Below are positions 441 to 42,000 of a stretch of DNA of 64,000 bases, piece after piece. A program made the position numbers and the translations under genes. The notes beneath the pieces are model-generated. The model worked only from the letters and a program-made list of their open reading frames with translations, ran no database searches and was not told where the DNA came from. The stretch covers positions 386,619-450,618 of the forward strand of contig NC_092556.1 in the NCBI RefSeq assembly GCF_037038585.1. The letters run 5' to 3'. This stretch comes from Patagioenas fasciata (lineage: Eukaryota). Positions within the stretch are counted from its first letter, which is position 1. Every line of letters starts with the position of its first letter.

Positions 441-1310
441 ATCACAGGAAATGGGCCCGAACTCCTGGGTCCCCCCCGAACTCCTGGGTCCCCCCCGAAC
501 TCCTGGGTCCCTCCCCGAACTCCTGGGTCCCCCCCCCGAACTCCTGGGTCCCTCCCGCACTCCTGGGTCCCCCCCGAACTCCTGGGTCCCTCCCCGAACT
601 CCTGGGTCCCCCCCGAACTCCTGGGTCCCCCCCCGAACTCCTGGGTCCCTCTTCCCACCCCAGGAAGTTATTTGGGGTCAAGGGGAGGTTGACCCCTCCC
701 GAACTCCTGGGTCCCCCCCCCGAACTCCTGGGTCCCCCCCCGAACTCCTGGGTCCCTCCCGAACTCCTGAGTCCCCCCCCGAACTCCTGGGTCCCTCCCG
801 AACTCCTGGGTCCCTCCCCCGAACTCCTGGGTCCCCCCCGAACTCCTGGGTCCCTCCCCGAACTCCTGGGTCCCTCCCGAACTCCTGGGTCCCTCTTCCC
901 ACCCCAGGAAGTTATTTGGGGTCAAGGGGAGGTTGACCCCTCCCGAACTCCTGGGTCCCCCTCCCGAACTCCTGGGTCCCTCCCGAACTCCTGGGTCCCC
1001 TCCCGAACTCCTGGGTCCCTCCCGAACTCCTGGGTCCCTCCCGAACTCCTGGGTCTCCCTCCCGAACTCCTGGGTCCCTCCCCCGAACTCCTGGGTCCCC
1101 CTCCCGAACTCCTGGGTCCCCCTCCCGAACTCCTGGGTCCCTCCCGAACTCCTGGGTCCCTCCCGAACTCCTGGGTCCCTCCCGAACTCCTGGGTCTCCC
1201 TCCCGAACTCCTGGGTCCCTCCCCCGAACTCCTGGGTCCCCTCCCGAACTCCTGGGTCCCCCTCCCGAACTCCTGGGTCCCTCCCCCGAACTCCTGGGTC
1301 CCCATTGACC
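441..1310 (+). repeat. Satellite, unit 17-19 bp GAACTCCTGGGTCCC(C)n, about 45 copies, with two about 50 bp spacers (648-701 and 893-946)
   Basis: Direct reading. The reverse complement GGGACCCAGGAGTTCGGG recurs at 5740-5890 and 18800-20000. Confidence 0.9.
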
Positions 1311-1559
1311 CCCAGCTCCTCCATGGCCACCTCATGGGTGCGAAAGGTGCCCAGGGTGGGTTCCTCTTGCCCGGTGGCCACCGTGGCCACCAAGGCTTGG
1401 GCCCCGCCCCCCCCGGCCCTCCCATCATCCTCTGGGAGCCTCACGGGCCCGGCCCAGGGCTCCAAGGACCCCGAGCGGCGGCGCCGGCGCCGGGCAACCA
1501 AGATGGCCGCCAACATGGCCACCAAGATGGCCGCCGTGGCCACCACCGGCAACGGCCAC

Positions 1560-2800
1560 CACCATAGGGCCACCTGGGGATGGGACGGGGCCACCGGGGG
1601 TGGGTGGTGGCCAACGGTGGCCAATGGGGCCTCTTGGTGGCCAATGGTGGCCGTTGAAGACTCCCGGTGGCCAATGGTGGCCATTGAGGACGATTGGTGG
1701 CCAATGGTGGCCATTGAGGACGATTGGTGGCCAATGGTGGCCGTTGAAGCCTCTTGGTGGCCAATGGTTGGTCCCGAAGACGGTTGGTGGCCAATGGTGG
1801 CCGTCGAAGCTGGTTGGTGGCCAATGGTGGCCAATGGGGCTTCTTGGTGGCCAATGGTGGCCGTTGAGGCCTCTTGGTGGCCAATGGTTGGTTCTGAAGA
1901 TGGTTGGTGGCCAATGGTGGCCAATGGGGTCTCTTGGTGGCCAATGGTGGCCAATGGGGACCCGTCGGTGGCTTCGGTGGCCAATGGGGCTTCTTGGTGG
2001 CCAATGGTGGCCAATGGGGCTTCTTGGTGACTCTTGGTGGCCAATGGGATCTCTTGATGGCCAACGGTGGCCAATGGGGCTTCTTCGTGACTCATGGTGG
2101 CCAATGGGGCCTCTTGATGACCAATGGTGGCCAATGAGGACCCATCGGTGGCCAATGGGGACTCTTGGTGGCCCTTGGTGGCCAATGGGGCTTCTTGATG
2201 ACCAATGGTGGCCAATGAGGACCCATCGGTGGCCAATGGGGCTTCTTGGTGGCCCTTGGTGGCCAATGGGGCTTCTTGATGACCAATGGTGGCCAATGAG
2301 GACCCATCGGTGGCCAATGGGGACTCTTGATGGCCAATGGTGGCCAATGGGGCTTCTTGATGACCAATGGTGGCCAATGAAGGCTCATCAGCAGCCAATG
2401 GGGCCTCTTGGTGACCCATGGTGGCCAATGGGGCTTCTTGGTGGCCAATGGTGGCCAATGGGGCTTCTTGATGACCAATGGTGGCCAATGAGGACCCATC
2501 GGTGGCCAATGGGGCCTCTTGATGGCCAATGGTGGCCAATGGGGCTTCTTGATGACCAATGGTGGCCAATGAAGGCTCATCAGCAGCCAATGGGGCCTCT
2601 TGGTGACCCATGGTGGCCAATGGGGCTTCTTGATGACCAATGGTGGCCAATGGGGCTTCTTGGTGGCCAATGGTGGCCAATGGAGCTTCTTGATGACCAA
2701 TGGTGGCCAATGAGGACCCATCGGTGGCCAATGGGGACTCTTGGTGGCCAATGGTGGCCGATGGGGGCCCATTGGTGGCCTCGGTGGCCAATGGGGACCC
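1560..2800 (+). repeat. Satellite GGTGGCCAATGGGGCYTCTT (10/20 bp), about 60 copies of the NF-Y-type GGCCAATGG motif
   Basis: Direct reading. Confidence 0.9.
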
Positions 2801-5540: not shown

Positions 5541-5899
5541 GGGACTTATGGGTCCGGGTCCAACTTATGGGTCCAGACCCAGAGGGAAGGGGACAAGGGG
5601 GGGACCCCAAACCCCCCACCGGACGCCTGGGTCCCCCCCCAAGAAGGGACCCAGGCGTCCGGGACCCCAAAATCCAAGCCACCAAATGCAAAACCCAGAC
5701 GCTTTATTCCCCCAAATGAAGGCGTTTTTGGGGGGGGACACAGAAATTTGGGGGACCCAGGAGTTCGGGGGGGACCCAGGAGTCCGGGGAGGGACCCAGG
5801 AGTTCGGGGGGACCCAGGAGTTCGGGGGGGGACCCAGGAGTTCGGGGGGACCCAGGAGTTCGGGGGGGGACCCAGGAGTTCGGGGCGGGGAGACTGGGA

Positions 5900-7790
5900 C
5901 ACAATGGGGGGTCCTGGGTAGACCTGGTGGCCCTGGGGGGCTCCTGGGTAGACCTGGTGGCCCTGGGGAGACCCCGAGATTTTGGGGGGTTCCTTGGGGT
6001 TTAGGGGGGTCCCCTGGATTATGGGGGGATCCAAGGGCTTAGGGGGGTCCCCAAGATCTTGGGGGGACCCAGGAGTTCGGGGGGAAGGGGAGAAATAGGA
6101 CATGGAAGCCAATGGGGGGACCTGGGTAGTCCTGGTGGCCCTGGGAGGCTCCCGGGTAGACCTGGTGGCCCTGGGGGGACCCCGAGATTTTGGGGGGTTC
6201 CTTGGGGTTTAGGGGGGGTCCCCTGGATTTTGGGGGGACCCAAGGGCTTAGGGGGGTCCCCAGGGTCCCCAAGATTTTGGGGGGACCCAGGAGTTCGGGG
6301 GGGAATGGAGAAATAGGGCATAGAAACCAATGGGGGGACCTGGGTAGACCTGGTGGCCCTGGGAGGCTCCTGGGTAGACCTGGTGGCCCTGGGGGGACCC
6401 CGAGATTTTGGGGGGTTCCCTGGGGTTTTTGGGGGTCCCCTGGATTATGGGGGGACCCGAGGGCTTAGGGGGGTCCCCAGGGTCCCCAAGATTTTGGGGG
6501 GACCCAGGAGTTCGGGGGGAAATGGAGAAATAGGGCATAGAAACCAATGGGGGGTCCTGGGTAGACCTGGTGGCCCTGGGAGGCTCCTGGGTAGACCTGG
6601 TGGCCCTGGGGGGACCCCGAGATTTTGGGGGGTTCCTTGGGGTTTGGGGACGTCCCCTGGATTTTGGGGGGACCCAAGGGCTTAGGGGAGTCCCCAAGAT
6701 CTTGGGGGGACCCAGGAGTTCGGGGGGAAGGGGAGAAATAGGACATGGAAGCCAATGGGGGGTCCTGGGTAGACCTGGTGGCCCTGGGAGGCTCCTGGGT
6801 AGACCTGGTGGCCCTGGGGGGACCCCGAGATTTTGGGGGGTTCCTTGGGGTTTGGGGGGGGGTCCCCTGGATTATGGGGGGACCCAAGGGCTTAGGGGGG
6901 TCCCCAGGGTCCCCAAGATTTTGGGGGGACCCAGGAGTTCGGGGGGGAATGGAGAAAGAGGGCATAGAAACCAATGGGGGGTCCTGGGTAGACCTGGTGG
7001 CCCTGGGAAGCTCCTGGGTAGACCTGGTGGCCCTGGGGGGACCCCGAGATTTTGGGGGGTTCCCTGGGGTTTAGGGGGGTCCCCTGGATTATGGGGGGAC
7101 CCAAGGGCTTAGGGGAGTCCCCAAGATCTTGGGGGGACCCAGAAGTTCGGGGGGAAGGGGAGAAATAGGACATGGAAGCCAATGGGGGGTCCTGGGTAGA
7201 CCTGGTGGCCCTGGGAGGCTCCTGGGTAGACCTGGTGGCCCTGGGGGGACCCCGGGGTTTTGGGGGGGTTCCCTGGGGTTTAGGGGGGTCCCCTGGATTA
7301 TGGGGGGACCCGAGGGCTTAGGGGGGTCCCCAGGGTCCCCAAGATTTTGGGGGGACCCAGGAGTTCGGGGGGAAATGGAGAAATAGGGCATAGAAACCAA
7401 TGGGGGGTCCTGGGTAGACCTGGTGGCCCTGGGAGGCTCCTGGGTAGACCTGGTGGCCCTGGGGAGACCCCGAGATTTTGGGGGGTTCCCTGGGGTTTGG
7501 GGGGGTCCCCTGGATTATGGGGGGACCCAAGGGCTTAGGGGGTCCCCAAGATTTTGGGGGGACCCAGGAATTCGGGGGGAAGGGGAGAAATAGGGCATAG
7601 AAACCAATGGGGGGACCTGGGTAGACCTGGTGGCCCTGGGAGGCTCCTGGGTAGACCTGGTGGCCCTGGGAGGTCCTGGGTAGACCTGGTGGCCCTGGGG
7701 GGACCCCGGGGTTTTGGGGGGGGTTCCCTGGGGTTTAGGGGGGTCCCCTGGATTTTGGGGGGTCCCAGGAGGGACCCAGGCGTCCGGGGG
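5900..7790 (+). repeat. Higher-order repeat, about 215 bp unit in about 8.5 copies (GGGTAGACCTGGTGGCCCTGGGAGGCTCC ... GGAGAAATAGGGCATAGAAACCAATGGGG)
   Basis: Copies start at about 6121, 6345, 6560, 6775, 6990, 7200, 7415 and 7630. This is the 3' flank of MYLPF. Confidence 0.85.
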
Positions 7791-7804
7791 GTTTTGGGGT
7801 GCCC

Positions 7805-7909
7805 TCATTCTCCCTCTTTGTCCTCGCCATGCGTTATCACGTAGCAGATGTTCTTGTAATCCACGTTGCCGGCCACGTCGGGGGGAAACGCCGCCCACAT
7901 GTTCTTGAT
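7805..7909 (-). CDS. MYLPF: MYLPF exon 7 ([34 protein letters not shown], stop)
   Basis: Acceptor cccccccccag|ATCAAGAAC. The stop codon TGA is at 7805-7807 on the minus strand. Confidence 0.9.
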
Positions 7910-10900
7910 CTGGGGGGGGGGACACCCCAAAATTGGTCAGTGGGGGACCCCAAAATACAAGGGGGGGGGTGCAATGTAGCATGGGGGGGATTTGGGGGGG
8001 ATTTGGGGGGGATTGGGGGGGATTTGGGGGGATTAGGGGGGGATTTGGGGGGTCAGCAAAGGGGGTTTGGGGGGAGCAGTGAGGGGGTATAGGGGGGGTT
8101 TTGGGGTCTCTATGGGGGGGTTTGGGGTCCCCATGGGGGGTTGGGGTCCCCAAGGGGGGTTTGGGGTCCCAAGGGGGGGTCCCAAGGGGGTTTGGGGTCC
8201 CTATGGGCAGTTTGGGGTCCGCATGGGGGGTTTGGGGTCCTCATGGGGGGTTTGGGGTCCCAAGGGGGGGTCCCAAGGGGGTTTGGGGTCCCTATGGGCA
8301 GTTTGGGGTCCCAAGGGGGTTTGGGGTCCGCATGGGGGGTTGGGGTCCCCAAGGGGGTTTGGGGTCCCAAGGGGGGTCCCAAGGGGGTTTGGGGTCCTCA
8401 TGGGGGGTTTGGGGTCCCCATGGGGGTTTGGGGTCCCCAGGGGGTTTGGGGTCCCCAAGGGGGTTTGGGGTCCTCATGGGGGGTTTGGGGTCCCATGGGG
8501 GGTTTGGGGTCCCCATGGGGGGTTTGGGGTCCCAAGGGGGGTTTGGGGTCCCCAAGGGGGTTTTGGGGTCCCCATGGGGGTTTGGGGTCCCCAGGGGGTT
8601 TGGGGTCCCCATGGGGGTTTGGGGTCCCCAGGGGGTTTGGGGTCCCAAGGGGGGTTTGGGGTCCCAAGGGGGTTTTGGGGTCCCCAAGGGGGTTTTGGGG
8701 TCCCCATGGGGGTTTGGGGTCCCCAGGGGGTTTGGGGTCCCAAGGGGGTTTGGGGTCCTCATGGGGGTTTGGGGTCCCCAAGGGGGTTTTGGGGTCCCCA
8801 AGGGGGTTTTGGGGTCCCCATGGGGGTTTGGGGTCCCCAGGGGGTTTGGGGTCCCAAGGGGGTTTGGGGTCCCCATGGGGGTTTGGGGTCCCAAGGGGGT
8901 TTGGGGTCCCCATGGGGGGTTTGGGGTCCTCATGGGGGGTTTGGGGTCCTCATGGGGGTTTGGGGTCCCCAAGGGGGTTTGGGGTCCCAAGGGGGGTCCC
9001 AAGGGGGTTTGGGGTCCCCATGGGGGTTTGGGGTCCTCATTGGGGGTTTGGGGTCCCCATGGGGGGTTTGGGGTCCTCATGGGGGGTTTGGGGTCCCAAG
9101 GGGGTTTGGGGTCCCAAGGGGGTTTTGGGGTCCCCATGGGGGTTTGGGGTCCTCATTGGGGGTTTGGGGTCCCCATGGGGGGTTTGGGGTCCCCAAGGGG
9201 GTTTGGGGTCCCAAGGGGGTTTGGGGTCCCCAAGGGGAGTTTGGGGTCCCCATGGGGGGTTTGGGGTCCTCATTGGGGGTTTGGGGTCCCCAAGGGGAGT
9301 TTGGGGTCCCAAGGGGGGTTTGGGGTCCCAAGGGGGTTTGGGGTCCCAAGGGGGTTTTGGGGTCCCCATGGGGGTTTGGGGTCCTCATGGGGGGTTTGGG
9401 GTCCCAAGGGGGTTTGGGGTCCCAAGGGGGTTTTGGGGTCCCCATGGGGGGTTTGGGGTCCCCATGGGGGTTTGGGGTCCTCATGGGGGGTTTGGGGTCC
9501 CAAGGGGGTTTGGGGTCCCCATGGGGGTTTGGGGTCCCCATGGGGGGTTTGGGGTCCCATGGGGGTTTGGGGTCCTCATGGGGGGTTTGGGGTCCCAAGG
9601 GGGTTTGGGGTCCCCATGGGGGTTTTGGGGGGTTCTGGGGGTTTTGGGGGTGGTTTTGGGGGGTTTTGGGGGGTCCCGGGGGGGTTTGGGGCTGATTTTG
9701 GGGTGATTTGGGGGGTTTTGGGGCTCTCACCTCCTCGGGGGTGAAGCGGTCGCACTGGGTGGTCAGGAGCTCCTCAAGGCTGGGGGGGCACAGTGACCCC
9801 AATGTCCCCATTGACCCCCACTGGCCCCCATTGGCCCCCATTGGCCTCCATTGACCCCCACTGGCCCCCATTGGCCCCCGTTGGCCCCCCATTGTCCTCA
9901 TTGGCCCCCATTGGCCCCCATTGGCCCCCCATTATCCCCATTGTCACCCCATCGGTCCCATTGCCCCCCATTGTCCCCCCATTGGCCCCATTGGCCCCCA
10001 CTGGCCCCCATTGGCCCCCATTGGCCCCCATTGTCACCCATTGTCCCCATTGTCCTCATTGGCCCCCATTGGCCCCCACTGGCCCCCATTGGCCCCCGTT
10101 GGCCCCCATTGTCACCCATTATCCCCATTGGCCCCCCATTGGCCCCATTGGCCCCCACTGGCCTCCATTGACCCCCATTGGCCCCCATTGGCACCATTGT
10201 CACCCATTGGCCCCATTGTCACCCATTGTCCCCATTGGTCCCCATTGGCCCCATTGTCACCCATTGTCCCCATTGTCCCCCCATTGTCCCCCATTGGCCG
10301 CCATTGCCCCCCATTGTCCCCCCATTGCCCCCCATTGTCACCCCATTGGCCCCCATTGGCTCCCATTGACCCCCATTGGCCCCCATTGGCCCCCCATTGT
10401 CCTCACTGTCCCCCATTGTCCCCATTGTCCCCATATCCCCCAATGTCCCCATATCCCCCAACACCCCCATTGTCCCCCCATGTCCCCCATGTCCCCCATG
10501 TCCCCAATGTCCCCATATCCCCCAACACCCCCATTGTCCCCCCATGTCCCCAATGTCCCCAATGTCCCCATTCCCCCCAACACCCCCATTGTCCCCCCAT
10601 GTCCCCCATGTCCCCCATGTCCCCAATGTCCCCAATGTCCCCATATCCCCCAACACCCCCATTGTCCCCCAATGTCCCCCATGTCCCCAATGTCCCCAAT
10701 GTCCCCATATCCCCCAACACCCCCATTGTCCCCCCATGTCCCCCATGTCCCCCATGTCCCCAACGTCCCCACTCACAAGCTCTTCTTGATGGAGCCCTTC
10801 CCGTCGGGGTCCAGCACCTTGAACGCCCCCATGATCACGTCCTCGGGGTCCGCGCCTGCCCCACGGGGTCCCCAAGGTCAAGGTCACGGCCCCAATGTCC

Positions 10901-13900
10901 CCAATGTCCCCCCATGTCCCCCAATGTCCCCCCATATCCCCCAATGTCCCCCCATGTCCCCCAATGTCCCCCCATATCCCCCAATGTCCCCCCAATGTCC
11001 CCAATGTGCCCCCATGTCCCTCATTGTCCCCATATCCCCAAATGTGTCCCCATGTCCCCCCATATCCCCACATCCCCCAATGTCCCCATGTCCCCCAATA
11101 TCCCCCTGTCCCCATATGTCCCATTGTCCCCATATCCCCCAATGTCCCCATTTTCCCCTCCATGTCCCCCATATCCCCCAATGTCCCCATTGCCCCCAAT
11201 GTCCCCATTGTCCCCATAGTCCCCCCATATCCCCCCATGTGCCCCCATTTATCCCCCCATATCCCCCAATGTCCCCATGTCCCCCATTGTCCTCATTGCC
11301 CCCAATGTCCCCATTGCCCCCAATGTCCCCATTGTCCCCCTATGCCCCCATAACCCCCATTGCCCCCAATGTCCCATTGTCCCCATGTCCCCCAATGTCC
11401 CCATGTCCCCCCATTATCCCCATACCCCCCACATCCCCCATATCCCCCAATGTCCCCATATCCCCCCATGTCCCCCATTGCCCCCCAATGTCCCCACGTC
11501 CCCCCATTATCCCCATGTCCCCCAATGTCCCCATGTCCCCCAATGTCCCCATGTCCCCCCATTATCCCCATATCCCCCAATGTCCCCATGTCCCCCAATG
11601 TCCCCAGATCCCCCCATTATCCCCATATCCCCCAATGTCCCCATGTCCCCCCATTATCCCCATATCCCCCAATGTCCCCATTGTCCCCCAATGTCCCCAG
11701 ATCCCCCCATTATCCCCATATCCCCCAATGTCCCCATTGTCCCCAATGCCCCCATTGTCCCCCTATCCCCCCATGTCCCCCCATTATCCCCCTGTCCCCC
11801 AATGTCCCCCTGTCCCCCAATGTCCCCATGTCCCCCAATGTCCCCCAATGTCCCCCAACGTCCCCAACGTCCCCACCCTTGAGCTTCTCCCCGAACATGG
11901 TGAGGAACACGGTGAAGTTGATGGGGCCGCTGGCCTCTTTGATCATGGCGTCCAGCTCCTCGTTCTTCACGTTCAGCCGGCCTATCAGAGACAGGGGGCG
12001 GGGCTTAGCGGGACACGCCCACCCCCAAACCCCGCCCCCTAGGCAATAAACCCCGCCCCTTACCATTCGGATTCCACACCCCCCCCTTGGCTCTATAGGC
12101 AATGGAATGGCCCTGGAGGCCACGCCCCCATTCACAAGCCACGCCCCCCTTTTAAACCCCCATTCCCTCCATTGGGTACCAAGGCCACGCCCCCTTTGTG
12201 CAAACCACGCCCCCTTTCCCAACCCCTATTGGCCCTGAGGCCACGCCCCCATTCTAAAGCCACGCCCCCAATCTTTAACCCCGCCTCCTTCTCCATAAGG
12301 CGCTAAGCCCCGCCCACCTTGCATAAGCGACGCCCCCCCCATTCTACCCAATTGGCTCTTGAGGCCACGCCCACATTTCCTCAAGCCACGCCCACATTTC
12401 CTCAAGCCACGCCCCTTTTCTAGACTCCGCCCCCTTCTCTATGAGGCGCTAAGCCACGCCCCCCTTTTCAATCTTCCATTTAATCCATTGGTTCTGGAAG
12501 CCACGCCCCCCCTTCAATCTCCCATTTACTCTACTGGCTGTGGAGGCCACGCCCCCTTTGCATAAGCCACGCCCCCTTTCAATATCCCATTTAATCTATT
12601 GGCTCTGGAGGCCACGCCCCCCACAAGCCCCACCCCTGCAAGCCGCTAAGCTCCGCCCCTTTGCCGCAAGCCACGCCCCCCCCCTTCCACCCCCCCAATT
12701 TACTCTATTGGCTCTGGAGGCCACGCCCACATTGCTCAGGCCACGCCCCCTCGGCAAACCCCACCCCCCCATTCATCCCTATGGCCCCATTGACCCCTCC
12801 ACCCCCCACAAGGCCACACCCATGCTCACTGAGGCCACACCCTCCAAGCCACGCCCACCTCCCCAAGCCACGCCCACCTCCCCCAAGCCACGCCCCCTCA
12901 CCCATGGCGGCGAAGGTCTCGCGCAGATCATCCTTATCAATGATCCCGTCCCGGTTCTGATCGATCACCGTGAACGCCTGCAGGGGGCGCGGGGGAGCAT
13001 GGGCCGCAGGCCACGCCCCCCGCCCCAAGCCACGCCCCCCCGCCCCAAGCCACGCCCCCCACCCCCCCCCCAAGCCTTCAAGGAGACATTGGAGCCGGCA
13101 ACAGGTGCTGGAAAGGACCCAGGCGTCCGGGGAAAGGGACCCAGGCGGCCGGGGGTTGGACCAAATAAGGGACCCAGGCGTCCGGGTGACCCCACCCCCC
13201 CCAAAAAAGGGACCCTGGAGTTCGGGGGTTGAACCAAAAAAGGACCCAGGCGTCCGGGGGGGTCTGATCAAGGGACCCAGGCGTCCGGGGAAAGGGACCC
13301 AGGCGTCCGGGGTGACCCCACCCCCCCAAAAAAGGGACCCTGGAGTTCGGGGGTTGAACCAAAAAAGGACCCAGGCGTCCGGGGTGACCCCTAAAAAGGG
13401 ACCCAGGCGTCCGGGGTGACCCCACCCCCCAAAAAAGGGACCCTGGAGTTCGGGGTTGAACCAAAAAAGGACCCAGGCATCCGGGGTGACCCCTAAAAAG
13501 GGACCCAGGCGTCCGGGGGGATCTGCCCGAGGGACCCAGGCGTCCGGGGGGGTCTGCCCAAGGGACCCAGGCGTCCGGGGGGGTCTGATCAAGGGACCCA
13601 GGCGTCCGGGGGGGTCTGATCAAGGGACCCAGGCGTCCGGGCAAAGGGACCCAGGCATCCGGGGTGACCCCTAAAAAGGGACCCAGGCGTCCGGGGGGGG
13701 TCTGCCCAAGGGACCCAGGCGTCCGGGGGGGTCTGCCCGAGGGACCCAGGCGTCCGGGGGGGTCTGCCCGAGGGACCCAGGCGTCCGGGGGGGTCTGATC
13801 AAGGGACCCAGGCGTCCGGGCAAAGGGACCCAGGCATCCGGGGTGACCCCTAAAAAGGGACCCAGGCGTCCGGGGGGGGTCTGCCCAAGGGACCCAGGCG

Positions 13901-18164: not shown

Positions 18165-18245
18165 GGCCGCTCTCGGGGTCTCTGGGGGTCCCGGCCCCTC
18201 CGGGGGTTTTAAAGCCTCTTGGCCCCGCCCCCCCCCCGGACGCCT
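18165..18245 (-). promoter_or_regulatory. MYLPF: MYLPF core promoter: TATA/MEF2-like TTTAAAA (18207-18213 plus-strand coordinates) about 43 nt upstream of the ATG, with a GC box (ggggcgggg) further upstream
   Basis: Minus strand reads gggggcggggccaagaggcTTTAAAAcccccggaggggccgggacccccagagaccccgagagcggccATG|gtgagg. The placement assumes an exon 1 that ends at the ATG. Confidence 0.45.
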
Positions 18246-20000: not shown

Positions 20001-20339
20001 AACCCCACATTGCCCCATTTTACACCACAATTTACCCCAACTTCCCGCCATTTTCCGCTCTGGCCCCGCCCCTTCCCGCTCCCCCACTCGCTCCCCATTG
20101 GCTCACGGCACCGCTCGCCCCGCCCACTCGCTCCCCATTGACCCCATCGCCTCGCCCCGCCCACTCGCTCCCCATTGGCTCACGGCGCCGTCCGCCCCGC
20201 CCACTCGCTCCTCATTGACCCCCATCGCCTCGCCCCGCCCACTCGCTCCCCATTGGCTCACGGCGCCGCTCGCCCCGCCCACTCGCTCCCCATTGGTTCT
20301 CCACGTCCTCTCCCTCCCCTCCTCCCATTGATTGAGGCG

Positions 20340-21840: not shown

Positions 21841-21850
21841 GATTTTGGGG

Positions 21851-33051: not shown

Positions 33052-36000
33052 GTGAGTGCCGCCCCATAGCCGCCCCATAGCCGCCCCATAGCCGCCCCAT
33101 AGCCGCCCCATAACGTCCTGCACCCCCCATCAGGCCCGGGACCTTCGCACTAACGAGCTCGTCGCGATTAAGAAAATGTCCTATGGGGGGAAACGATCCG
33201 ATGAGGTAATGGGGGGGGGTTGGGGAAGGGACCCAGGCGTCCGGGAGGGGACCCAGGCGTCCGGGCCCCACGGATCCGTGGGTCTGCCCCCCAGAAATGG
33301 CGCGACATCGTGCGCGAGGCGTCGCTGCTGCAGCGCCTGCGCCACCCCAACATCGTGGCCTTCCGGGGCTGCTACCTGCGGGGCCACACGGCCTGGGTGA
33401 GCGACCCACAAGTGTGGGGCGGGACCCATAAGTGTGGGGTGGGACCCATAAGTGTGGGGCAGGGGGGAGTGGGGTTGGAAATGGGGGTTTGGGGAGGGTT
33501 TGGGGGCTCAGAAATGGGGGTTATGGGGGGATGTTGGGACCCATAAGTGTGGGGCAGGACCCACAAGTGTGGGGCAGGGGGGAGTGGGGTCGGAAATGGG
33601 GGTTTTAGGAGGGTTTGGGGAGGGTTTTGGGGCTCAAATGTGGGTTATAGGGGGATGTTGGGGCCCGTAAGTGTGGGGCAGGACCCATAAGTGTGGGGCA
33701 GGACCCATAAGTGTGGGGCGGGACCCATAAGTGTGGGGCAGGGGGGAGTGGGGTCGGAAATGGGGGTTTTAGGAGGGTTTGGGGAGGGTTTTGGGGCTCC
33801 AATGTGGGTAATGGGGGGATGTTGGGGCCCATAAGTGTGGGGCTGGACCCATAAGTGTGGGGCAGGGGGGAGTGGGGTTAGAAATGGGGGTTTTGTGAGG
33901 GTTTGGGGGCTCAGAAATGGGGTTTTGGGGGTGGGTTTGGGACCCATAGATGTGGGGCAGGGGGTGTTGGGCCCCATAAGTGTGGGGCAGGACCCATAGA
34001 GGTGGGGCAGGGGGTGTTGGGCCCCATAAGTGTGGGGCTGACCCATAGATGTGAGGCAGGGGGTGTTGGGCCCCATAAGTGTGGGGCTGACCCATAGATG
34101 TGGGGCAGGGGGTGTTGGGCCCCATAAGTGTGGGGCTGACCCATAGATGTGAGGCAGGGGGTGTTGGGCCCCATAAGTGTGGGGCTGACCCATAGATGTG
34201 GGGCAGGGGGTGTTGGGCCCCATAAGTGTAGGGGAAGGACTTGGGGCCCAGAAATGGGGCTTTGGGGGGCACTGGGACCCCCAAATGTGGGGCAGGGGGT
34301 GTTGGGCCCCCTAAGTGTGGGGCAGAGGGTTGTCGTGCCCCACATCTATGGGGCAGGCCCGCTCTCCCTAGCTGGCCATGGAGCGCTGCCTGGGCTCGGC
34401 CGCCGACCTGCTGGAGGGTGAGTGCCGTGGGGCGGCGCTGTGGGGCAGCCCCACAGATCCCGGAGCTCACCCCCCAACCTCTGCCCCACAAGTGCACAAG
34501 AAGCCGCTGCGGGAGGCGGAGATCGCGGCCATCAGCCAGGGGGCGCTGCGCGGCCTGGCCTACCTGCACCGCCTGGGGGTCGTCCACAGGTCAGCCCCAT
34601 AGATCGACCCATAGATCGACCCATAGGTCCCGCCCCATAGGTCCTGACCCATAGCGGGACCCACAGCACCTGTTGTATTGGTTTCTCTGGGTCTTTTCTT
34701 GTGCTTGTTGGTCCCGCCCCATAGGTCCCGCCCCATAGATCCCGACCCATAGATCCCGCCCCATAGATCCCGCCCCATAGATCCCGCCCCATAGCGGGAC
34801 CCACAGCCCCCGTTGTGTTGGTTTCTCTGGGTCTTTTCTTGCTTGTGCTGGTCGGACCCGCCCCATAGGTCCCACCCCATAGATCCCGCCCCATAGGTCC
34901 CACCCCGTAGATCCCGCCCCATAGATCCCGACCCATAGCGGGACCCACAGCCCCCGTTGTGTTGATTTCTCTGGGTCTTTTCTTGCTTGTGCTTGTTGGA
35001 CCCGCCCCATAGGTCCCGCCCCATAGGTCCCGACCCATAGATCCCGACCCATAGATCCCGCCCCATAGATCCCGCCCCATAGCAGGACCCACAGCCCCCG
35101 TTGTGTTGATTTCTCCGGGTGTTTTCTTGCTTGTGCTGGTCGGTCCCACCCCATAGATCCTGACCCATAGATCCTGACCCATAGATCCCGCCCCATAGAT
35201 CCCGCCCCATAGCAGGACCCACAGCCCCCGTTGTGTTGATTTCTCCGGGTGTTTTCTTGCTTGTGCTGGTCGGTCCCACCCCATAGATCCTGACCCATAG
35301 ATCCCGACCCATAGATCCCGCCCCATAGATCCCGCCCCATAGCAGGACCCACAGCCCCCGTTGTGTTGATTTCTCCGGGTGTTTTCTTGCTTGTGCTGGT
35401 TGGTCCCACCCCATAGATCCTGACCCATAGATCCCAACCCATAGATCCTGACCCATAGCGGGACCCACAGCCCCCATTGTGTTGGTTTCTCTGGGTCTCC
35501 CCTTGCTTGTGTTTGTTGGTCCCGCCCCATAGGTCCCGCCCCATAGGTCCCGCCCCATAGATCCCACCCCATAGGTCCCGCCCCATAGGTCCCACCCCAT
35601 AGATCCCACCCCATAGATCCTGCCCCATAGCAGGACCCACAACCCGTGTTGTACGGATTTCTCTGCTTCTTTTCTTGCCCCACTGATTCTGCCCCACATT
35701 CTCTACTGTGCCCCACAGCTCCTGCCCCACTGATCCCACCCCACTCATCTCTGGCCCCACAGCTCCTGCCCCGCTGATCCTGCCCCACAGCTTCCGCCCC
35801 ACTGATCCCACCCCACTCCTCTCCCTCTTCTCTGCCCCACAGCTCCTGCCCCACTGCTCCTGCCCCACTGATCCCACCCCACTTCTCTCCCTCTTCTCTG
35901 CCCCACTGATCCCGCCCCACTGATCCTGCCCCACTTATTTCCCTATTCTCTGCCCCACAGATCCCGCCCCACTGATCCCGCCCCACTGATCCCGCCCCAC

Positions 36001-39000
36001 TGATCCTGCCCCACTCATCTCCATAATCTCTGCCCCACAGCTCTTTTGCTTCTTCTCTGCCCCACTGACCCCGCCCCACTGACCCCGCCCCACTGACCCC
36101 GCCCCACAGCTCCTGCCCCACTGACCCCGCCCCACTGACCCCGCCCCACTGACCCCGCCCCACGGCTGCTGCCCCACTGACCCCACCCCACAGCTCCCGC
36201 CCCACAGCTCCTGCCCCACTGACCCAGCCCCACTGACCCAGCCCCACAGCTCCCGCCCCACTGACCCCGCCCCACAGCTCCCGCCCCACAGCTCCCGCCC
36301 CACAGCTCCTGCCCCACTGACCCCGCCCCACTGACCCCGCCCCACTGACCCCGCCCCACTGACCCCGCCCCACGGCTGCTGCCCCCAGGGACGTGAAGGC
36401 CGGGAACATCCTGCTCAGCCCCACAGCCCAGGTCAAACTCGGCGACTTCGGCTCCGCCGCCACGGCCGCCCCGGCCGGGGCCTTCGTGGGGACCCCCTAC
36501 TGGTGAGAGACCCACACGTGTGGGGCTGGGACCCCCAAGTGTGGGGCTGGGACCCCCAAGTGTGGGGCTGGGACCATAGAGCGGCTGGGAGTGGGGGTTG
36601 CGACCCCCAAGTGTGGGGCTGGGACCCCCAAGTGTGGGGCTGGGACCATAGAGTGGCTGGGAGTGGGGGTTGTGACCCCCAAGTGTGGGGCTGGGACCCC
36701 CAAGTGTGGGGCTGGGACCATAGAGTGGCTGGGAGTGGGGGTTGTGACCCCCAAGTGTGGGGCTGGGACCCCCAAGTGTGGGGCTGGGACCATAGAGTGG
36801 CTGGGAGTGGGGGTTGTGACCCCCAAGTGTGGGGCTGGGACCCCCAAGCGTGGGGCTGGGACCATAGAGCGGCTGGGAGTGGGGGTTGTGACCCCCAAGT
36901 GTGGGGCTGGGACCCCCAAGTGTGGGGCTGGGACCATAGAGCGGCTGGGAGTGGGGGTTGTGACCCCCAAGTGTGGGGCTGGCCCCACACCCCAGCCCCG
37001 CTCCCTGCCCTGCCCCCGCCCCGCCCACAGTGCTGCCCCACACCCCTGCCCCACACCCCGCCCCCTGCCCCGCCCCCAGTGCTGCCCCGCCCCCCTGCCC
37101 CCCTGCCCCACCCCCAGTGCTGCCCCGCCCCCCTGCCCCCCTGCCCCGCCCCCAGTGCTGCCCCGCCCTCCCCACCCCGCCCCACACCCTCACCCCACAC
37201 CCCTCCTCACACCCCCACCCCACACCCCCGCCCCACAGCCCCCACCCCTGCCCCCCACCCTGCCCCACAACCCCACCCCACACCCCCCCCACCCTGCCCC
37301 GCCCCCCAGCCCCGCCCCACGTCCCTGCCCCACACCCCTGCCCCACATCCCCCCCCCACCCCTGCCCCACACCCCCCCCACCCCCGCCCCTGATCCCCGC
37401 CCCTGCCCCACACCCCCACCTCCCATCTTGCCCCACACCCCCGCCCCACACCCCTCCCCACACCCCCGCCCCATCACCGCTGCCCCACACCCCCGCCCCA
37501 CATCCCTCCCCACACCCCTGCCCCACACCCCTGCCCCACACCCCTGCCCCACACCCCGCCCCCAGTGCTGCCCCGCCCCCCCTGCCCCCGCCCCGCCCCC
37601 AGCGCTGCCCCGCCCCCTGCCCCACACCCCGCCCCATCACCGCTGCCCCACAGCCCCGTCCCACACCCCGCCCCCTGCCCCCCGCCCCGCCCCACGCGCG
37701 CTGTCCCCAGGATGGCCCCCGAGGCGATCGTGGCTCCGGACGGGCGGGCGAGCGACGGCAGAGCCGACGTCTGGGCCCTGGGCATCACCTGCATCGAGCT
37801 GGGTGAGACGTGACCCCTGACCCTGACCCTGACCTCTGACCCCTGACCCCTGACCCTGACCCCTGACCCTGACCCCTGACCCACGGCTGACCCGTGACCC
37901 TGACCCACGGCTGACCCATAGCTGACCCACGGCTGACCCACAGCTGACCCACGGCCCTGCCCCATGGTTGACCCATAACCTTGACCCATAGCTGACCCAT
38001 AGCCCTGACCCACAGCTGACCCATAGCCCTGACCCACAGCTGACCCACGGCTGACTCATAACCCTGACCCACAGCTGACCCACGGCTGACCCACAGCCTG
38101 ACCCATAGCCCTGACCCATAGCCTGACCCACATCCTGCCCCATGGCCTGACCCATAGCCTGACCCACAGCTAACCTATGGCTGACCCATAGCCCTGCCCC
38201 ATAGCTGACCCACGGCTGACCCATAGCCCTGACCCATAGCTGACCCACAGCCTGACCCACAGCCTGACCCACAGCCAGAGCCTGACTCACAGCCACCCCA
38301 TAGCTGATCCACATCCTGACCCACATCCTGACCCACATCCTGACCCACATCCTGACCCACAGCCCTGAGCCACAGCCCTGACCCACATCCTGCCCCATAG
38401 CCTGACCCACAACCTGACCCACAGCCAGAGCCTGACCCACATCCACCCCACATCCACCCACATCCCTGACCCACATTCAACCCACACCCACATCCACCCC
38501 ACAGCTGCCCCACATCTCCCCTCACACCCCACCCCCCACCCCACCCCACCCATTGTTGGGGTCTCGTTCCTGTTCCAATTGGGGGGCGGCGGGCGGGGGC
38601 GGTTCTGGGGCTGCTGTGGGGCTGCCCCCCCGCTCTGCCCCACACATCCCCCCCCGCTCTGCCCCACACATCCCCCCCGCTCTGCCCCACACATCCCCCC
38701 CCGCTCTGCCCCACACATCCCCCCCCGCTCTGCCCCACACATCCCCCCCGCTCTGCCCCACACATCCCCCCCCGCTCTGCCCCACACATCCCCCCCCGCT
38801 CTGCCCCACACATCCCCCCCCGCTCTGCCCCACACATCCCCCCCGCTCTGCCCCACATATCCCCCCCGCTCTGCCCCACACATCCCCCCCGCTCTGCCCC
38901 ACACATCCCCCCCGCTCTGCCCCACACATCCCCCCCGCTCTGCCCCACACATCCCCCCCGCTCTGCCCCACACATCCCCCCCGCTCTGCCCCACACATCC

Positions 39001-42000
39001 CCCCCCGCTCTGCCCCACACATCCCCCCCGGCTCTGCCCCACACATCCCCCCCGGCTCTGCCCCACACATCCCCCCTGCTCTGCCCCACACATCCCCCCC
39101 GCTCTGCCCCACACATTCCCCCCCGCTCTGCCCCACCCCCCGCTCAGCCCCACCCCCCGCTCAGCCCCACCCCCCGCTCAGCCCCACCCCCCGCTCAGCC
39201 CCGCCCCCCCGCTCAGCCCCGCCCCCCCGCTCAGCCCCGCCCCCCCGCTCAGCCCCGCCCCCCCGCTCAGCCCCGCCCCCCCGCTCAGCCCCGCCCCCCC
39301 GCTCAGCCCCGCCCCCCCGCTCAGCCCCGCCCCCCGCTCAGCCCCGCCCCCCGCTCAGCCCCGCCCCCCGCTCAGCCCCGCCCCCCGCTCAGCCCCGCCC
39401 CCCGCTCAGCCCCACCCCCCCGCTCAGCCCCACCCCCCGCTCAGCCCCACCCCCCGCTCAGCCCCACCCCCCCGCTCAGCCCCACCCCCCGCTCAGCCCC
39501 ACCCCCCGCTCAGCCCCACCCCCCCGCTCAGCCCCACCCCCCGCTCAGCCCCACCCCCCGCTCAGCCCCACCCCCCCGCTCAGCCCCACCCCCCGCTCAG
39601 CCCCACCCCCCGCTCAGCCCCACCCCCCCGCTCAGCCCCACCCCCCCGCTCAGCCCCACCCCCCCGCTCAGCCCCACCCCCCGCTCAGCCCCACCCCCCC
39701 GCTCAGCCCCACCCCCCCGCTCAGCCCCACCCCCCGCTCAGCCCCACCCCCCGCTCAGCCCCACCCCCCGCTCAGCCCCACCCCCCCGCTCAGCCCCACC
39801 CCCCCGCTCAGCCCCACCCCCCCGCTCAGCCCCGCCCCCCGCTCAGCCCCGCCCCCCGCTCAGCCCCGCCCCCCGCTCAGCCCCGCCCCCCGCTCAGCCC
39901 CGCCCCCCGCTCAGCCCCGCCCCCCGCTCAGCCCCGCCCCCCGCTCAGCCCCGCCCCCCGCTCAGCCCCGCCCCCCGCTCAGCCCCGCCCCCCGCTCAGC
40001 CCCGCCCCCCGCTCAGCCCCGCCCCCCTGCCCCCCAGCGGAGCGGAAGCCCCCCCTGTTCCACATGAACGCCATGAGCGCCCTGTACCACATCGCACAGA
40101 GCGCCCCCCCCCGCCTGCACGGGACCCAATGGTGAGCGTAGGACGCCTGGGTCCCTTGGGGCACTCCTGGGTCCCTCCCGAACTCCTGGGTCCCTCCCGA
40201 ACTCCTGGGTCCCCCCCGAACTCCTGGGTCCCCCCCCGAACTCCTGGGTCCCCCCCCGAACTCCTGGGTCCCTCCCGAACTCCTGGGTCCCTCCTGAACT
40301 CCTGGGTCCCTCCTGAACTCCTGGGTCCCCCCCGAACTCCTGGGTCCCCCCCCGAACTCCTGGGTCCCTCCTGAACTCCTGGGTCCCCCCCCAAACTCCT
40401 GGGTCCCTTGGGGCACTCCCGGGTCCCTGGGGCACTCCCGGGTCCCTTGGGGCACTCCTGGGTCCCTTGGGGCACTCCCAGGTCCCTGGGGCACTCCTGG
40501 GTCCCTGGGCCACTCCTGGGTCCCTTTCCCCCCTCCCCTGGGTCCCTTGGGGCACTCCCGGGTCCCTGGGGCTCTCCTGGGTCCCTGGGGCACTCCTGGG
40601 TCCCTTTCCCCCCTCCCCTGGGTCCCTTGGGGCACTCCCGGGTCCCTGGGGCACTCCCGGGTCCGTGGGGCACTCCTGGGTCCCTTTCCCCCCTCCCCTG
40701 GGTCCCTTGGGGCACTCCCGGGTCCCTGGGGCACTCCTGGGTCCCTGGGCCACTCCTGGGTCCCTTTCCCCCCTCCCCTGGTTCCCTTGGGGCACTCCCG
40801 GGTCCCTGGGGCACTCCCAGTTCCCTTGGGGCACTCCTGGGTCCCTTGGGGCACTCCTGGGTCCCCGGGGCACTCCTGGGTCCCTGGGGCACTCCTGGGT
40901 CCCTGGGGCACTCCCGGGTCCCTTGGGGCACTCCTGGGTCCCTGGGGCACTCCCAGTTCCCTTGGGGCACTCCTGGGTCCCTGGGGCACTCCCAGGTCCC
41001 TTGGGGCACTCCTGGGTCCCTTGGGGCACTCCCGGGTCCCTGGGGCACTCCTGGGTCCCCGGGGCACTCCCGGGTCCCTGACGGGGTCCCAGGTCCCCGT
41101 GTTTCGGGGGGTTCGTGGCTTCGTGTCTGCAGAAGCGGCCGCAGGAGCGCCCCACGGCCCAGGAGCTGCTGCAGGTGCCTCGTTAGCGCCAATTAGCGCT
41201 CATTAACGCTCATTAACGCTCGTCGCCCCTCATCGCCCCTCATTGTCCCCTCGTTACCCCGGTACCCCCTCAATTGCCCCATCGAGCCCCGTTATCCCGT
41301 TAATTACCCCACTGATCCCCATTATACTGTTAATTATCCCCATTGATTCCCGTTATCCCCATTATCCCATTAATTACCCCATTTATCCCCATTATCCCAT
41401 TAATTACCCCATTGATCACTATTATCCTATTTATTATCCCCATTGATTCCCAGTGTCCTTATTATCCCATTAATTACCCCATTGATCCCCATTATCCTGT
41501 TAATTATCCCCATTGATTCCCATTGTCCTTATTAACCCATTAATTACCCCATTGATCCCCATTATCCTGTTAATTATCCCCATTGATTCCCATTGTCCTT
41601 ATTAACCCATTAATTACCCCATTGATCCCCGTTATCCTGTTAATTATCCCCATTGATTCTGGTTATCCCCATTATCCCGTTAATTACCCCATTGATCCCC
41701 ATTGTCCTGTTAATTATCCCCATTGATTCCCGTTATCCCCATTATCCCATTAACTACCCCATTGATCCTCATTATCCTGCTAATTATCCCCATTGATTCC
41801 CATTGTCCCCATTATCCCATTAATTACCCCATTGATCCCCATTATCCTGTTAATTATCCCCATTGATTCCCATTGTCCCCATTATGCCATTAATTACCCC
41901 ATTGATCCCCATTATCCTGTTAATTATCCCCATTGATTCCCGTTATCCCCATTATCCCATTAATTACCCCATTGATCCCCATTATCCTGTTAATTATCCC

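Follow-up and report, generated by a model that had tools for sequence, protein, structure and literature searches.

The 64-kb stretch of Patagioenas fasciata DNA analysed here (the window) carries five genes: MYLPF and PAGR1 on the minus strand, TAOK2 and CDIPT on the plus strand, and a fibrinogen-domain gene on the minus strand. MYLPF, TAOK2, PAGR1 and the fibrinogen-domain gene were identified via their exons, and CDIPT was spliced by hand. The window is euchromatin of a dot microchromosome of this species, the band-tailed pigeon, in the "sequence stuttering" state, and nearly all of its intronic and intergenic DNA has been replaced by degenerate GC-rich minisatellites. Its CDIPT is 100% identical to a P. 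fasciata protein from a 2.1-Mb contig, and the orthologous chromosome of Caloenas measures 0.77 Mb. The GC content is 51-76%, and the exons are only 87-95% identical to those of chicken (GRCg7b). Tandem repeats detected by TRF make up 84% of the window; the intervals separating the arrays are 80-485 bp long and exon mapping shows many of them to hold exons. G4 motifs cover 46.5% of the window versus 14.5% in shuffles. We assign the window to the stuttering state because this repeat coverage and this G4 load match the published descriptions (PMC12954441; bioRxiv 10.1101/2025.10.17.683159; 10.1101/2025.10.14.682431).

A census of the whole window yielded 66 TRF arrays, which were compared by an all-against-all 14-mer analysis and by a 13-mer census leaving out words with homopolymer runs of six or more. 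In the latter, 27 arrays are singletons and there are 12 groups of more than one array, only 3-5 of which are truly non-local, the remainder being neighbouring arrays inside one intron. The original prediction is thus roughly right in saying that the majority of arrays occur at a single site, and both comparisons reveal homology at the level of the repeat unit, beyond mere G/C runs. In the PAGR1 introns (22365-28324), a TTGGGGGAAAT array (22365-23471) and an array of its exact reverse complement, CCCCCAAATTT (26917-28324), flank the exon at 23687-23820, one on each side. An Rfam scan of the window gave no matches, and 11 ARAGORN "tRNA-Pro" calls (89-96 nt) all lie within the GGGGGTTTGGGGTCCCCAT array and are repeat artefacts; no SINE-like source is therefore seen.

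Family 1 has an 18-bp core, GGGACCCAGGMGTYCGGG, which is matched 168 times in the window with at most one mismatch, against 0.00 expected from 100 dinucleotide-preserving shuffles. Its arrays have a pairwise containment of 0.58-0.90 in the 13-mer census, and a literature search found no paper on the core sequence. The family-1 features are the following:

456-1303, minus strand: array W1, about 37-42 units of 19-21 bp, AGTTCGGG variant only
5618-5635, minus strand, and 5646-5663, plus strand: isolated inverted pair of cores, CGTC form
5750-5891, plus strand: array W2, 7 units, downstream of MYLPF
5902-7670, plus strand: 208/427-bp higher-order repeat, each ~208-bp unit holding one core
7771-7788, plus strand: isolated core, about 20 bp past the MYLPF stop codon
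13110-14431, plus strand: array W3 in MYLPF intron 2, each 31-bp unit combining the CGTC core with a spacer
17788 and 17832 (span 17788-17849), plus strand: isolated cores, CGTC form
18235-18752, minus strand: array W4, left arm of an inverted pair
18816-20005, plus strand: array W5, right arm of the pair, 19-20-bp units with a 79/99-bp higher-order pattern
33228 and 33248 (span 33228-33265), plus strand: two tandem cores at the start of TAOK2 intron 2
40146-41080, minus strand: array W6, filling one TAOK2 intron, AGTGCCCCA variant dominant
40040-40132 and 41085-41174: TAOK2 exons bracketing W6
49620-49637, minus strand: isolated core, 420 bp upstream of the CDIPT ATG

All of the family-1 sites in the original prediction (the six arrays and the isolated copies at 17788/17832 and 33228/33248) are present in the orientations it gave, including the flip within 18230-20000, where W4 on the minus strand is followed by W5 on the plus strand. 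It had missed the inverted pair at 5618-5663, the higher-order repeat at 5902-7670 and the single cores near the MYLPF stop codon and upstream of CDIPT. Related transcript contigs indicate that the higher-order repeat is transcribed within the MYLPF 3' UTR. W4 ends some 10 bp away from two elements of the MYLPF promoter, a GC box and a TATA-like box, and the CDIPT-upstream core adjoins a GC box and an ETS-like CCGGAAGTG. A comparison of the sequences flanking eight isolated copies and the array edges revealed nothing shared outside the 18-22-bp core.

Besides GGGACCCAGGMGTYCGGG, the recurring families are GATGTGGGG (family 2) and CCCATTGRC (family 3, with the units CCCATTGRCCCC and CCCATTGTC):

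14540-15833, plus strand: family-2 array, GGATGTGGGGN, 11/23 bp, in MYLPF intron 1 upstream of exon 2
62517-63994, plus strand: family-2 units in a higher-order repeat of 123-136 bp that includes a copied exon edge
9797-10775, plus strand: family-3 array (CCCCATTGGC / CCCCAATGTC) filling MYLPF intron 5
10857-11874, plus strand: family-3 array filling MYLPF intron 4
43316-44305, plus strand: family-3 array in a TAOK2 intron
45472-46105, plus strand: degenerate family-3 array (CCCCCATTGATC / CCCCATTGA)
59879-62298, plus strand: family-3 arrays (CCCATTGACC, 10 bp) in an intron of the fibrinogen-domain gene

Both family-2 sites and all four family-3 sites had been predicted, the region 9797-11874 being really two arrays separated by MYLPF exon 5 (10776-10856), with an identical sub-variant on either side of the exon. 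In the 13-mer census the two family-2 sites reach a containment of just 0.26, and weak reverse-complement relatives occur at 37008-37674 and 38436-38549. Family 3 has the same orientation in every array, its sole reverse relative being a diverged TGGTGGCCAA array at 1605-2810. Three extra exon-edge copies break up the arrays at 59879-62298. Exon-edge pieces are present in 12 copies (62517-63994) and in 4 copies in Patagioenas versus one each in Caloenas; the "exon-junction capture" that had been read as a sign of exchange is hence real, but it corresponds to the published exon stuttering, which is a local process (PMC12954441). DNA folding of segments of the three families gave z-scores of -0.9 to +2.9 against shuffles, with no excess stability. 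The single-strand hairpins of the units being no stabler than those of shuffled sequence, a hairpin or cruciform propensity was rejected as a driver and only a G4-type structural argument survives.

For a view of the history of these sites we compared the window with Caloenas nicobarica, part of Columba livia, and chicken and other bird loci. Most of the sampled arrays have a Caloenas orthologue at the matching position and in the matching orientation, and the same holds for Columba where it was sampled. The same exons or anchors bracket the orthologues of the inverted pair upstream of MYLPF, of the arrays in MYLPF introns 2 and 5, and of W6 in TAOK2, the last being present in Caloenas with its orientation unchanged. 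The family-2 and family-3 arrays of TAOK2 and the fibrinogen-domain gene likewise have orthologous arrays in Caloenas or Columba (in both for 43316-44305 and 59879-62298). Two isolated single cores are orthologous in Caloenas and a third has a likely counterpart there; the start of TAOK2 intron 2 holds two family-1 cores in Patagioenas versus one, at the same place, in Caloenas. The CDIPT-upstream core has been kept in three pigeons, with 16 of its 18 positions invariant. Since both arrays and single cores are orthologous in position and orientation across the pigeons, their dispersal predates Patagioenas, Columba and Caloenas, and the occurrence of orthologous family-3 arrays in all three means that descent explains the distribution of this family within pigeons. 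In chicken, MYLPF intron 5 has an orthologous family-3 array in the same gene-relative orientation, and the family also occurs in other introns of the gene and in other orientations. The family-1 core was not found in the sampled loci of chicken, zebra finch and other birds. The recurring families are, in short, old and lineage-restricted minisatellite families.

The content of these sites is far from static. Unit lengths and copy numbers vary both by site and by species; in the fibrinogen-gene intron, for example, there are 20 family-3 units in Caloenas, about 100 in Patagioenas and 277 in Columba. Patagioenas and Caloenas differ outright at two sites. MYLPF intron 4 is 1020 bp long in Patagioenas versus 116 bp, with no family-3 array, in Caloenas, and at the family-2 site in MYLPF intron 1 (14540-15833) Caloenas has no GATGTGGGG array but orthologous sequence of the CCCCAAATCC type, one substitution from CCCCACATCC. 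Both differences can be accounted for by a putative local gain or loss, and for the second it would suffice that a unit differing by one substitution mutated within the site.

The distribution of unit variants suggests that the arrays also exchange sequence with one another. The tail AGTGCCC occurs in 8, 14 and 24 copies in W4, W5 and W6, with none in W1-W3 or in any of the five Caloenas arrays, a comparison confined to Patagioenas and Caloenas as the Columba sequence starts ~2 kb downstream of the W6 intron array. Conversely, CGTCCGG occurs 7, 4 and 8 times in the Caloenas arrays C4, C5 and C6 versus 1, 1 and 0 times in W4, W5 and W6; for both counts the units within one array are non-independent observations. 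Thus for three array pairs in two species the paralogues share variants that their orthologues lack, which is the hallmark of concerted evolution, and the AGTGCCC-bearing Patagioenas arrays are up to 20 kb apart. The sorting of an ancestral mixture of variants could conceivably have left the same pattern. Any exchange would have been at most sporadic, since W3 and its Caloenas orthologue C3 have both retained a private unit type, including CATC variants common to these two arrays only. The longest stretches identical between arrays (35-61 bp) consist of nothing but repeated copies of one unit and so fit block transfer and unit-level spread equally well.

A second line of evidence comes from the inverted pair upstream of MYLPF and its surroundings, where two further features are relevant:

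18753-18915: spacer of the inverted pair, with a non-repeat centre (containing CAGGTG), three cores and a unique segment U (GCTATTTTTACCCCTTTGTCCCGATAAGGGC)
20006-20342: interval of the synteny breakpoint relative to Caloenas, holding CCAAT-box and GC-box repeats of about 60-78 bp

The arms W4 and W5 are complementary over 98-129 nt at 73-90% (up to 119 nt at 90%) in many registers. When the relative orientation of the Patagioenas and Caloenas sequences was established by blastn of non-repeat anchors, the spacer aligned plus/plus at 93.8% identity and the MYLPF-side anchors, including the adjacent one, plus/minus. This indicates that the spacer has probably been flipped between the two species relative to fixed flanks, although an error in one of the two assemblies could give the same picture. 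On a larger scale, MYLPF is inverted relative to PAGR1-TAOK2-CDIPT in comparison with Caloenas, with the breakpoint inside 20006-20342 at the one inversion end that is seen. The Caloenas adjacency of an MFS transporter gene and MYLPF is common to three other bird assemblies, and this lineage-specific inversion ends no more than 340 bp from the inverted array pair. The shared species-specific variants, the spacer flip and the breakpoint beside the inverted pair thus lend indirect comparative support to the inter-array exchange put forward in the original prediction.

We therefore favor, with a probability of roughly 0.6, an explanation in which the recurring families reflect an old dispersal, local expansion and occasional exchange between arrays, without active transposition. 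The comparisons show that short cores, single or in arrays and with fixed orientation, already occupied these sites in the ancestor that Patagioenas, Columba and Caloenas have in common. Since then the individual sites have expanded, contracted and been re-patterned locally, as spacers and higher-order patterns that differ from site to site attest, and exon edges have been copied together with the units. Occasional non-allelic exchange, by gene conversion or recombination, would homogenise variants over 20-100 kb in either orientation, flip the spacer of the inverted pair upstream of MYLPF and probably contribute to gene-order inversions, as far as two species can tell. The first arrival of the cores may have involved template switching during the repair or replication of G4-prone DNA, or perhaps the splitting of ancestral arrays by inversions. 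More tentatively, and with the odds rather against it, the intronic and intergenic minisatellites of one family could form an exchanging network along a dot chromosome, with non-allelic conversion over 20-100 kb in either orientation and with inverted arrays as the substrates for spacer flips and for the gene-order inversions that distinguish pigeon lineages. If so, such a network would tie sequence stuttering mechanistically to the structural instability of dot chromosomes, and perhaps to gene loss.

The most serious alternative is convergence, in which look-alike units arise independently by mutation and in-array homogenisation within a narrow motif vocabulary (a run of C4-6 or G4-6 and 3-5 A/T-rich bases, repeated roughly every 10-11 bp). 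Among the 28 short-unit arrays, 14.6% of pairs are within two edits of each other versus 2.1% for shuffled units, which looks more like a continuum than a set of discrete families. The low containment between the family-2 sites, the CCCCAAATCC units that occupy one of them in Caloenas and the family-3 arrays in other introns and orientations of chicken MYLPF all point the same way, as do zebra finch units, reported to be multiples of 10-11 bp (bioRxiv 10.1101/2025.10.17.683159). The 9-11-bp families may thus be partly convergent. Nevertheless, the orthology of the family-3 arrays in three pigeons speaks against convergence, and it is implausible for GGGACCCAGGMGTYCGGG, which has no long homopolymers, an expected count of zero and complex shared variants such as AGTGCCCCA. 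As an account of the recurring families in general it seems unlikely.

It is less likely still that the core is a putative functional site (transcription-factor, insulator or structural) under selection, with the arrays as by-products of its expansion. The near-invariant core upstream of CDIPT, between a GC box and CCGGAAGTG, the conserved single core in TAOK2 intron 2 and the position of the W4 end beside the MYLPF promoter would all fit this idea. However, the flanks in the same alignments are about as well conserved (mean column identity 79-81%), the orientation of the core relative to the genes is inconsistent, it is present in anything from 1 to more than 50 copies, and it is missing from the sampled loci of chicken, zebra finch and other birds.

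The "active" and "transposition-like seeding" part of the original prediction is not supported. Isolated 18-22-bp copies in both orientations at eight sites or more, and the two sites that differ between Patagioenas and Caloenas, are what a mobile element (a MITE, a Helitron or another transposon-borne satellite) now seeding neighbouring genes might leave behind, but the copies have no flanking sequence in common, and neither terminal inverted repeats nor target-site duplications nor ORFs surround them. Moreover, the arrays and single copies are orthologous across genera, the Rfam and ARAGORN results offer no candidate source, and dot-chromosome euchromatin has been described as devoid of interspersed repeats (PMC12954441). 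This reading, which appears to be largely refuted already, is very improbable. Least credible of all is an assembly artefact in which repeats were collapsed, mis-joined or copied between sites: although HiFi coverage drop-outs are reported for precisely this type of sequence (10.1101/2025.10.14.682431), the independent assemblies of two other pigeon species agree in families, places, orientations and bracketing exons.

How does an old dispersal with local expansion and occasional exchange compare with known systems? The sole mechanistic account so far of the intron repeats of dot chromosomes is that of sequence or exon stuttering in birds, in which the expansions are "strictly local", kept apart from one another by exons (Hron et al. 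2026, PMC12954441). The resemblance is considerable: the euchromatin is GC-rich, gene-dense and G4-prone, imperfect tandem repeats whose units measure tens to hundreds of bp fill the introns almost completely, exon edges reappear as copies in the intron next to them, and lengths vary greatly between genomes. Here, however, no fewer than three families are found in more than one intron and more than one gene, in both orientations. Family 1 forms six arrays in or beside MYLPF, TAOK2 and intergenic DNA, and family 3 lies in introns of three genes (MYLPF, TAOK2 and the fibrinogen-domain gene), so that neither is strictly local. Unlike what that paper describes in chicken, the pigeon families are positionally conserved between genera and bear signs of inter-array exchange. 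What our data would add to that account is the sharing of families between introns and genes, the persistence of positions and orientations across genera while the content turns over, and the signatures of inter-array exchange and array-mediated inversion.

In zebra finch, more than 70% of the intron sequence of dot chromosomes is tandem repeat, according to the available parts of two preprints (bioRxiv 10.1101/2025.10.14.682431, 10.1101/2025.10.17.683159). Those parts describe intronic minisatellites that are similar to ours, with 10-30-bp units, often multiples of 10-11 bp, and an enrichment in G4 and direct-repeat motifs; they treat the repeats as a class, without named shared families, orientation or between-species orthology. 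The PO41/CNM repeats of Galliformes are multi-locus tandem-repeat families whose arrays are mostly subtelomeric or centromeric (PMC4301066, PMC9974502). Like ours, they have many loci per family, G-rich and C-rich strands and homologous regions kept between related species, and on a chicken dot chromosome they are enriched outside the heterochromatin. Their 41-42-bp unit, which appears to differ in sequence as well, sets them apart from the 19-20-, 31-, 10- and 11-bp units found here, and the family-1 core is absent from the sampled chicken locus.

Jeffreys-type minisatellites are dispersed GC-rich loci with a short common core of the GGGCAGGAXG type. Judged by eye the family-1 core is different, and the 84% density and the confinement between exons are far greater here than for mammalian minisatellites. 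The satellite "library" and concerted-evolution models invoke turnover by unequal exchange and gene conversion, through which variants become homogenised within a species. Inverted repeats, in turn, can mediate "flip-flop" inversions via non-allelic homologous recombination. The MYLPF upstream region has the features of such a system (inverted arms around a spacer that points in opposite directions in the two genomes between unchanged flanks, with the possibility of assembly error mentioned above), but its arms are minisatellite arrays instead of unique duplicated segments and the difference is seen between species. Dispersed core-sharing minisatellites and concerted evolution are ideas of long standing, and our evidence is limited to one locus in two to three species. 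If it proves general, the arrays would be not just passive filler but substrates for recombination, shaping the gene order of the most unstable bird chromosomes. Because the orthologous arrays are bracketed by exons, they also provide a tractable system for measuring non-allelic conversion. What we describe is a non-local, exchanging variant of a known phenomenon.

Tandem repeats cover 84% of the 64 kb (Tandem Repeats Finder), the GC content ranges from 51 to 76% along the window, and the gaps between arrays measure 80-485 bp, with recognisable exons in many of them. Genes were placed by tblastn, using MYLPF, TAOK2 and CDIPT proteins as queries, and by Pfam domain matches:

14441-14530, 12903-12980, 11878-11994, 10776-10856, 9725-9799 and 7808-7918, minus strand: MYLPF exons (tblastn)
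32932, plus strand: start of TAOK2 (tblastn)
50040, plus strand: start of CDIPT (tblastn)
28325-28547, minus strand: PAGR1 exon, PAXIP1_C (Pfam)
59437-59769 and 62335-62516, minus strand: exons of a fibrinogen-domain gene, Fibrinogen_C (Pfam)

The window is band-tailed pigeon DNA and belongs to a small microchromosome with synteny to human 16p11.2 genes. The hand-spliced CDIPT product (224 residues) is 100% identical to Patagioenas fasciata CDIPT on a 2.11-Mb contig; the next-best matches are Caloenas nicobarica (87%) and Columba livia. G4 motifs cover 46.5% of the window versus 14.5% in shuffles. With respect to RNA genes, Rfam gave zero matches across the whole window, and the 11 ARAGORN “tRNA-Pro” calls (89-96 nt), all within the intron-6 array of MYLPF (GGGGGTTTGGGGTCCCCAT, 8395-9624), are false positives of G-run/C-run repeats.

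The original prediction held that the same satellite families recur in both orientations, through active exchange or transposition-like seeding. The recurrence itself is real: both an all-against-all comparison of 14-mers and a 13-mer census without words holding homopolymers of 6 or more reveal true unit-level homology. The 18-bp core of family 1, GGGACCCAGGMGTYCGGG, occurs 168 times when up to one mismatch is allowed, and never in 100 shuffles, and its predicted sites and orientations are all correct: arrays W1 (456-1303, minus), W2 (5750-5891, plus), W3 (13110-14431, plus), W6 (40146-41080, minus) and the flip from W4 (18235-18752, minus) to W5 (18816-20005, plus). Overlooked were a higher-order repeat at 5902-7670 with one core per ~208 bp, an inverted pair of cores at 5618/5646 and single cores at 7771 and 49620. 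Family 2 (11/23-bp units) does recur at two sites, but the resemblance is loose (containment only 0.26). Family 3 (~10-bp units) recurs as well, but always in one orientation in the window, and its supposedly single array at 9790-11870 is two arrays with MYLPF exon 5 between them. By the 13-mer census, 27 of the 66 arrays are singletons, and only 3-5 of the 12 multi-array groups are non-local. In PAGR1, the TTGGGGGAAAT repeat of one intron (22365-23471) returns as an exact reverse complement in the neighbouring intron (26917-28324). Near the window start, 1-230 holds 13.6 tandem copies of GGCGGCCATCTTGGATC, the core of which, GCCATCTTG, is similar to the YY1 consensus; inverted copies, AAGATGGCCGCC, occur at 1489-1536 on the far side of W1, so that W1 becomes the second case of a family-1 array set in an inverted arrangement.

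For the short units, the meaning of recurrence is less simple. When the 28 arrays with 9-12-bp units were compared in any rotation and on either strand, 14.6% of pairs lay within two edits of each other, versus 2.1% for shuffled units, so families 2 and 3 belong to a continuum. The family-2 array of MYLPF intron 1 is missing in Caloenas, where CCCCAAATCC-type sequence stands in its place, differing from CCCCACATCC by one substitution. Recurrence of a 10-bp unit can result either from common descent from an old stock of 10-11-bp minisatellites or from convergence in situ; a clean homology argument comes only from the 18-bp family.

To find orthologous positions, we retrieved the MYLPF gene and introns from six assemblies by an exact look-up of the MYLPF protein (P0121) and three further loci via Caloenas CDIPT isoform X1, Caloenas TAOK2 and Columba CDIPT, and bracketed the positions by exons and non-repeat anchors. 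The Caloenas loci (L004, L011 and L013) have a GC content of 56-61%, and tandem repeats make up 77% of L004. Caloenas has same-orientation orthologues of both family-1 arms of the inverted pair that lies upstream of MYLPF (L004 8901-9367 on the minus and 9426-9881 on the plus strand), of the arrays in MYLPF introns 2 (family 1, L004 11957-13677) and 5 (family 3, L004 15118-16164) and of W6, the family-1 array taking up a whole TAOK2 intron (L013 13998-14640). Positional orthologues, again in the same orientation, were found for the family-3 arrays of TAOK2 and of a fibrinogen-gene intron (20 copies of CCCATTGAC in Caloenas, 277 in Columba) and for the family-2 array adjoining a fibrinogen-gene exon. 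Even isolated cores are preserved in alignments: one 420 bp upstream of CDIPT is kept in all three pigeons, and TAOK2 intron 2 opens with two cores in Patagioenas and a single one in Caloenas. In the part of the fibrinogen-domain gene past the window end, Caloenas has a further family-1 array (L011 21175-21790) and a pair of cores (L011 24228-24265). The family-1 core was not found in the loci of chicken, zebra finch and three other birds; chicken MYLPF does carry family 3, as a 6.5-kb plus-strand stretch in intron 2 and as minus-strand repeats in intron 5, where the orientation agrees with that in pigeon.

From these orthologous arrays and cores, the distribution of families over their sites is old and goes back at least to the time when these pigeon genera separated, probably tens of millions of years ago. 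As most of the sampled sites are orthologous between genera, the pattern lends no support to continuing transposition or active seeding. Moreover, no mobile-element-like features were seen around isolated family-1 cores or array edges.

Within these old sites, turnover is considerable. Each site has its own unit structure. Units of W1 and W2 are 19-21 bp long and of an AGTT type, those of W3 are 31 bp (core plus spacer), and array copy numbers differ strongly between species. MYLPF intron 4 (10857-11877) is a family-3 array of ~1,020 bp in Patagioenas, whereas in Caloenas it has 116 bp and no array (L004 14907-15022); in other birds it measures 595-4,100 bp. Edges of the fibrinogen-domain exons are present in 4 (59673-61745) and 12 copies (62464-63994) in Patagioenas, in one copy each in Caloenas and in 1-2 in Columba; such multiplication has been published as exon stuttering. 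The last exon of CDIPT has a fragment, GGPGLFSLLLWV, duplicated ~200 bp upstream of the true exon (57305-57340). MYLPF transcript contigs from public sequencing runs (L007, L009 and L010) have an intact CDS, with exons 95-98% identical to the window, and, in the stretch corresponding to window 5902-7911, read past the end of the CDS into the higher-order repeat of 208-bp units, with family-1 cores about 20, 380 and 800 nt past the stop; this places the array within the MYLPF 3' UTR of a related bird.

Exchange between arrays, the other part of the prediction, fares better than seeding. We typed family-1 units by the seven bases 3' of the core; C3 to C6 are the Caloenas orthologues of W3 to W6.

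Counts of two unit variants in family-1 arrays of Patagioenas (W) and Caloenas (C)
AGTGCCC: W4 8, W5 14, W6 24, W1-W3 0; C4, C5 and C6 0 (all five Caloenas arrays 0)
CGTCCGG: W4 1, W5 1, W6 0, W3 33; C4 7, C5 4, C6 8, C3 36

W4 and W5 together form the inverted pair; W6, oriented as W4, lies 20 kb off in a TAOK2 intron. Paralogues of one species thus share variants that have no counterpart in the orthologues, which, on unit variants of three array pairs in two species, reads as the classical signature of concerted evolution. It may be, instead, that an ancestral mixture of variants was sorted between the species. The intron-2 arrays W3 and C3 both retain CGTC and CATC units, and their 16-mer sharing (0.26) is far above that of either with other arrays of its own genome, so exchange would be sporadic at most rather than pervasive.

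The inverted pair has the same module in both species: minus arm, ~60-bp centre with CAGGTG, three plus-strand cores, a ~35-bp unique segment U and plus arm. The two modules align plus/plus (93.8%), while the MYLPF-side anchors, including a 60-bp anchor of promoter and exon 1 adjoining the module, align plus/minus; relative to MYLPF the centre is thus flipped between the two species, barring an error in one assembly, as would be expected of recombination between the inverted arms, which match over up to 119 nt at 90% identity. Gene order differs too. Caloenas (CM069743.1; L004, L013) has PAGR1(-), TAOK2(+), CDIPT(+), the fibrinogen gene(-), ~65 kb, an MFS transporter(-), the module and MYLPF(+), whereas PAGR1 of Patagioenas has MYLPF(-) and the module as its immediate left neighbours, the MYLPF block being inverted and relocated relative to PAGR1-TAOK2-CDIPT. 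The transporter-MYLPF adjacency also occurs in three other bird assemblies, which makes the order seen in Patagioenas the derived one. One breakpoint of the inversion lies in 20006-20342, beside the outer W5 edge, an interval that has no match in the Caloenas loci compared; it holds CCAAT-box and GC-box repeats of ~60-78 bp. Caloenas carries an extra inverted U copy at the outer edge of the minus arm (pair I22), absent from Patagioenas, which is consistent with breakage within this arm or next to it. At 18145-18234, the outermost family-1 unit is directly adjoined by MYLPF exon 1 (…GCGGCCATG followed by GTGAGG) with its GC box and TATA-like TTTAAAA. Non-repeat islands conserved within the pair (18753-18915) carry the E-box CAGGTG and the A/T-rich, MEF2-like CTATTTTTAC; going by these motifs, they may act as muscle enhancers and have survived between arrays as exons do.

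The mechanism we propose would combine old dispersed cores and arrays with continuing local expansion and contraction, exon edges included, both documented by the species comparisons, and, by inference, with arrays now and then undergoing non-allelic conversion or recombination with one another. The cores may first have spread by template switching where DNA is G4-prone, or through inversions that split arrays; hairpin formation is unsupported.

Jeffreys-type minisatellites offer one parallel, with a core shared among loci, conservation at homologous sites and concerted evolution, but their sequences and unit sizes are unlike those of the pigeon families. The PO41 and CNM repeats of Galliformes (PMC4301066, PMC9974502) follow a like logic, being multi-locus families at conserved homologous sites that evolve in concert, again with different sequences and unit sizes. 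The genomic state of the window is that published for chicken and zebra finch dot chromosomes, whose introns are >70% minisatellite and G4-enriched, with units often multiples of 10-11 bp, through a process named “sequence stuttering” (PMC12954441; 10.1101/2025.10.17.683159; 10.1101/2025.10.14.682431). The features compared match the window except its stated strict locality. On a chicken GRCg7b unplaced scaffold (L001 4778-16403 and 23127-24164), the CCCATTGRCCCC family occupies several MYLPF introns in both orientations, so non-local families also exist in the very species whose stuttering was called “strictly local”. We rate the families of the window as a non-local, exchanging variant of this known phenomenon.
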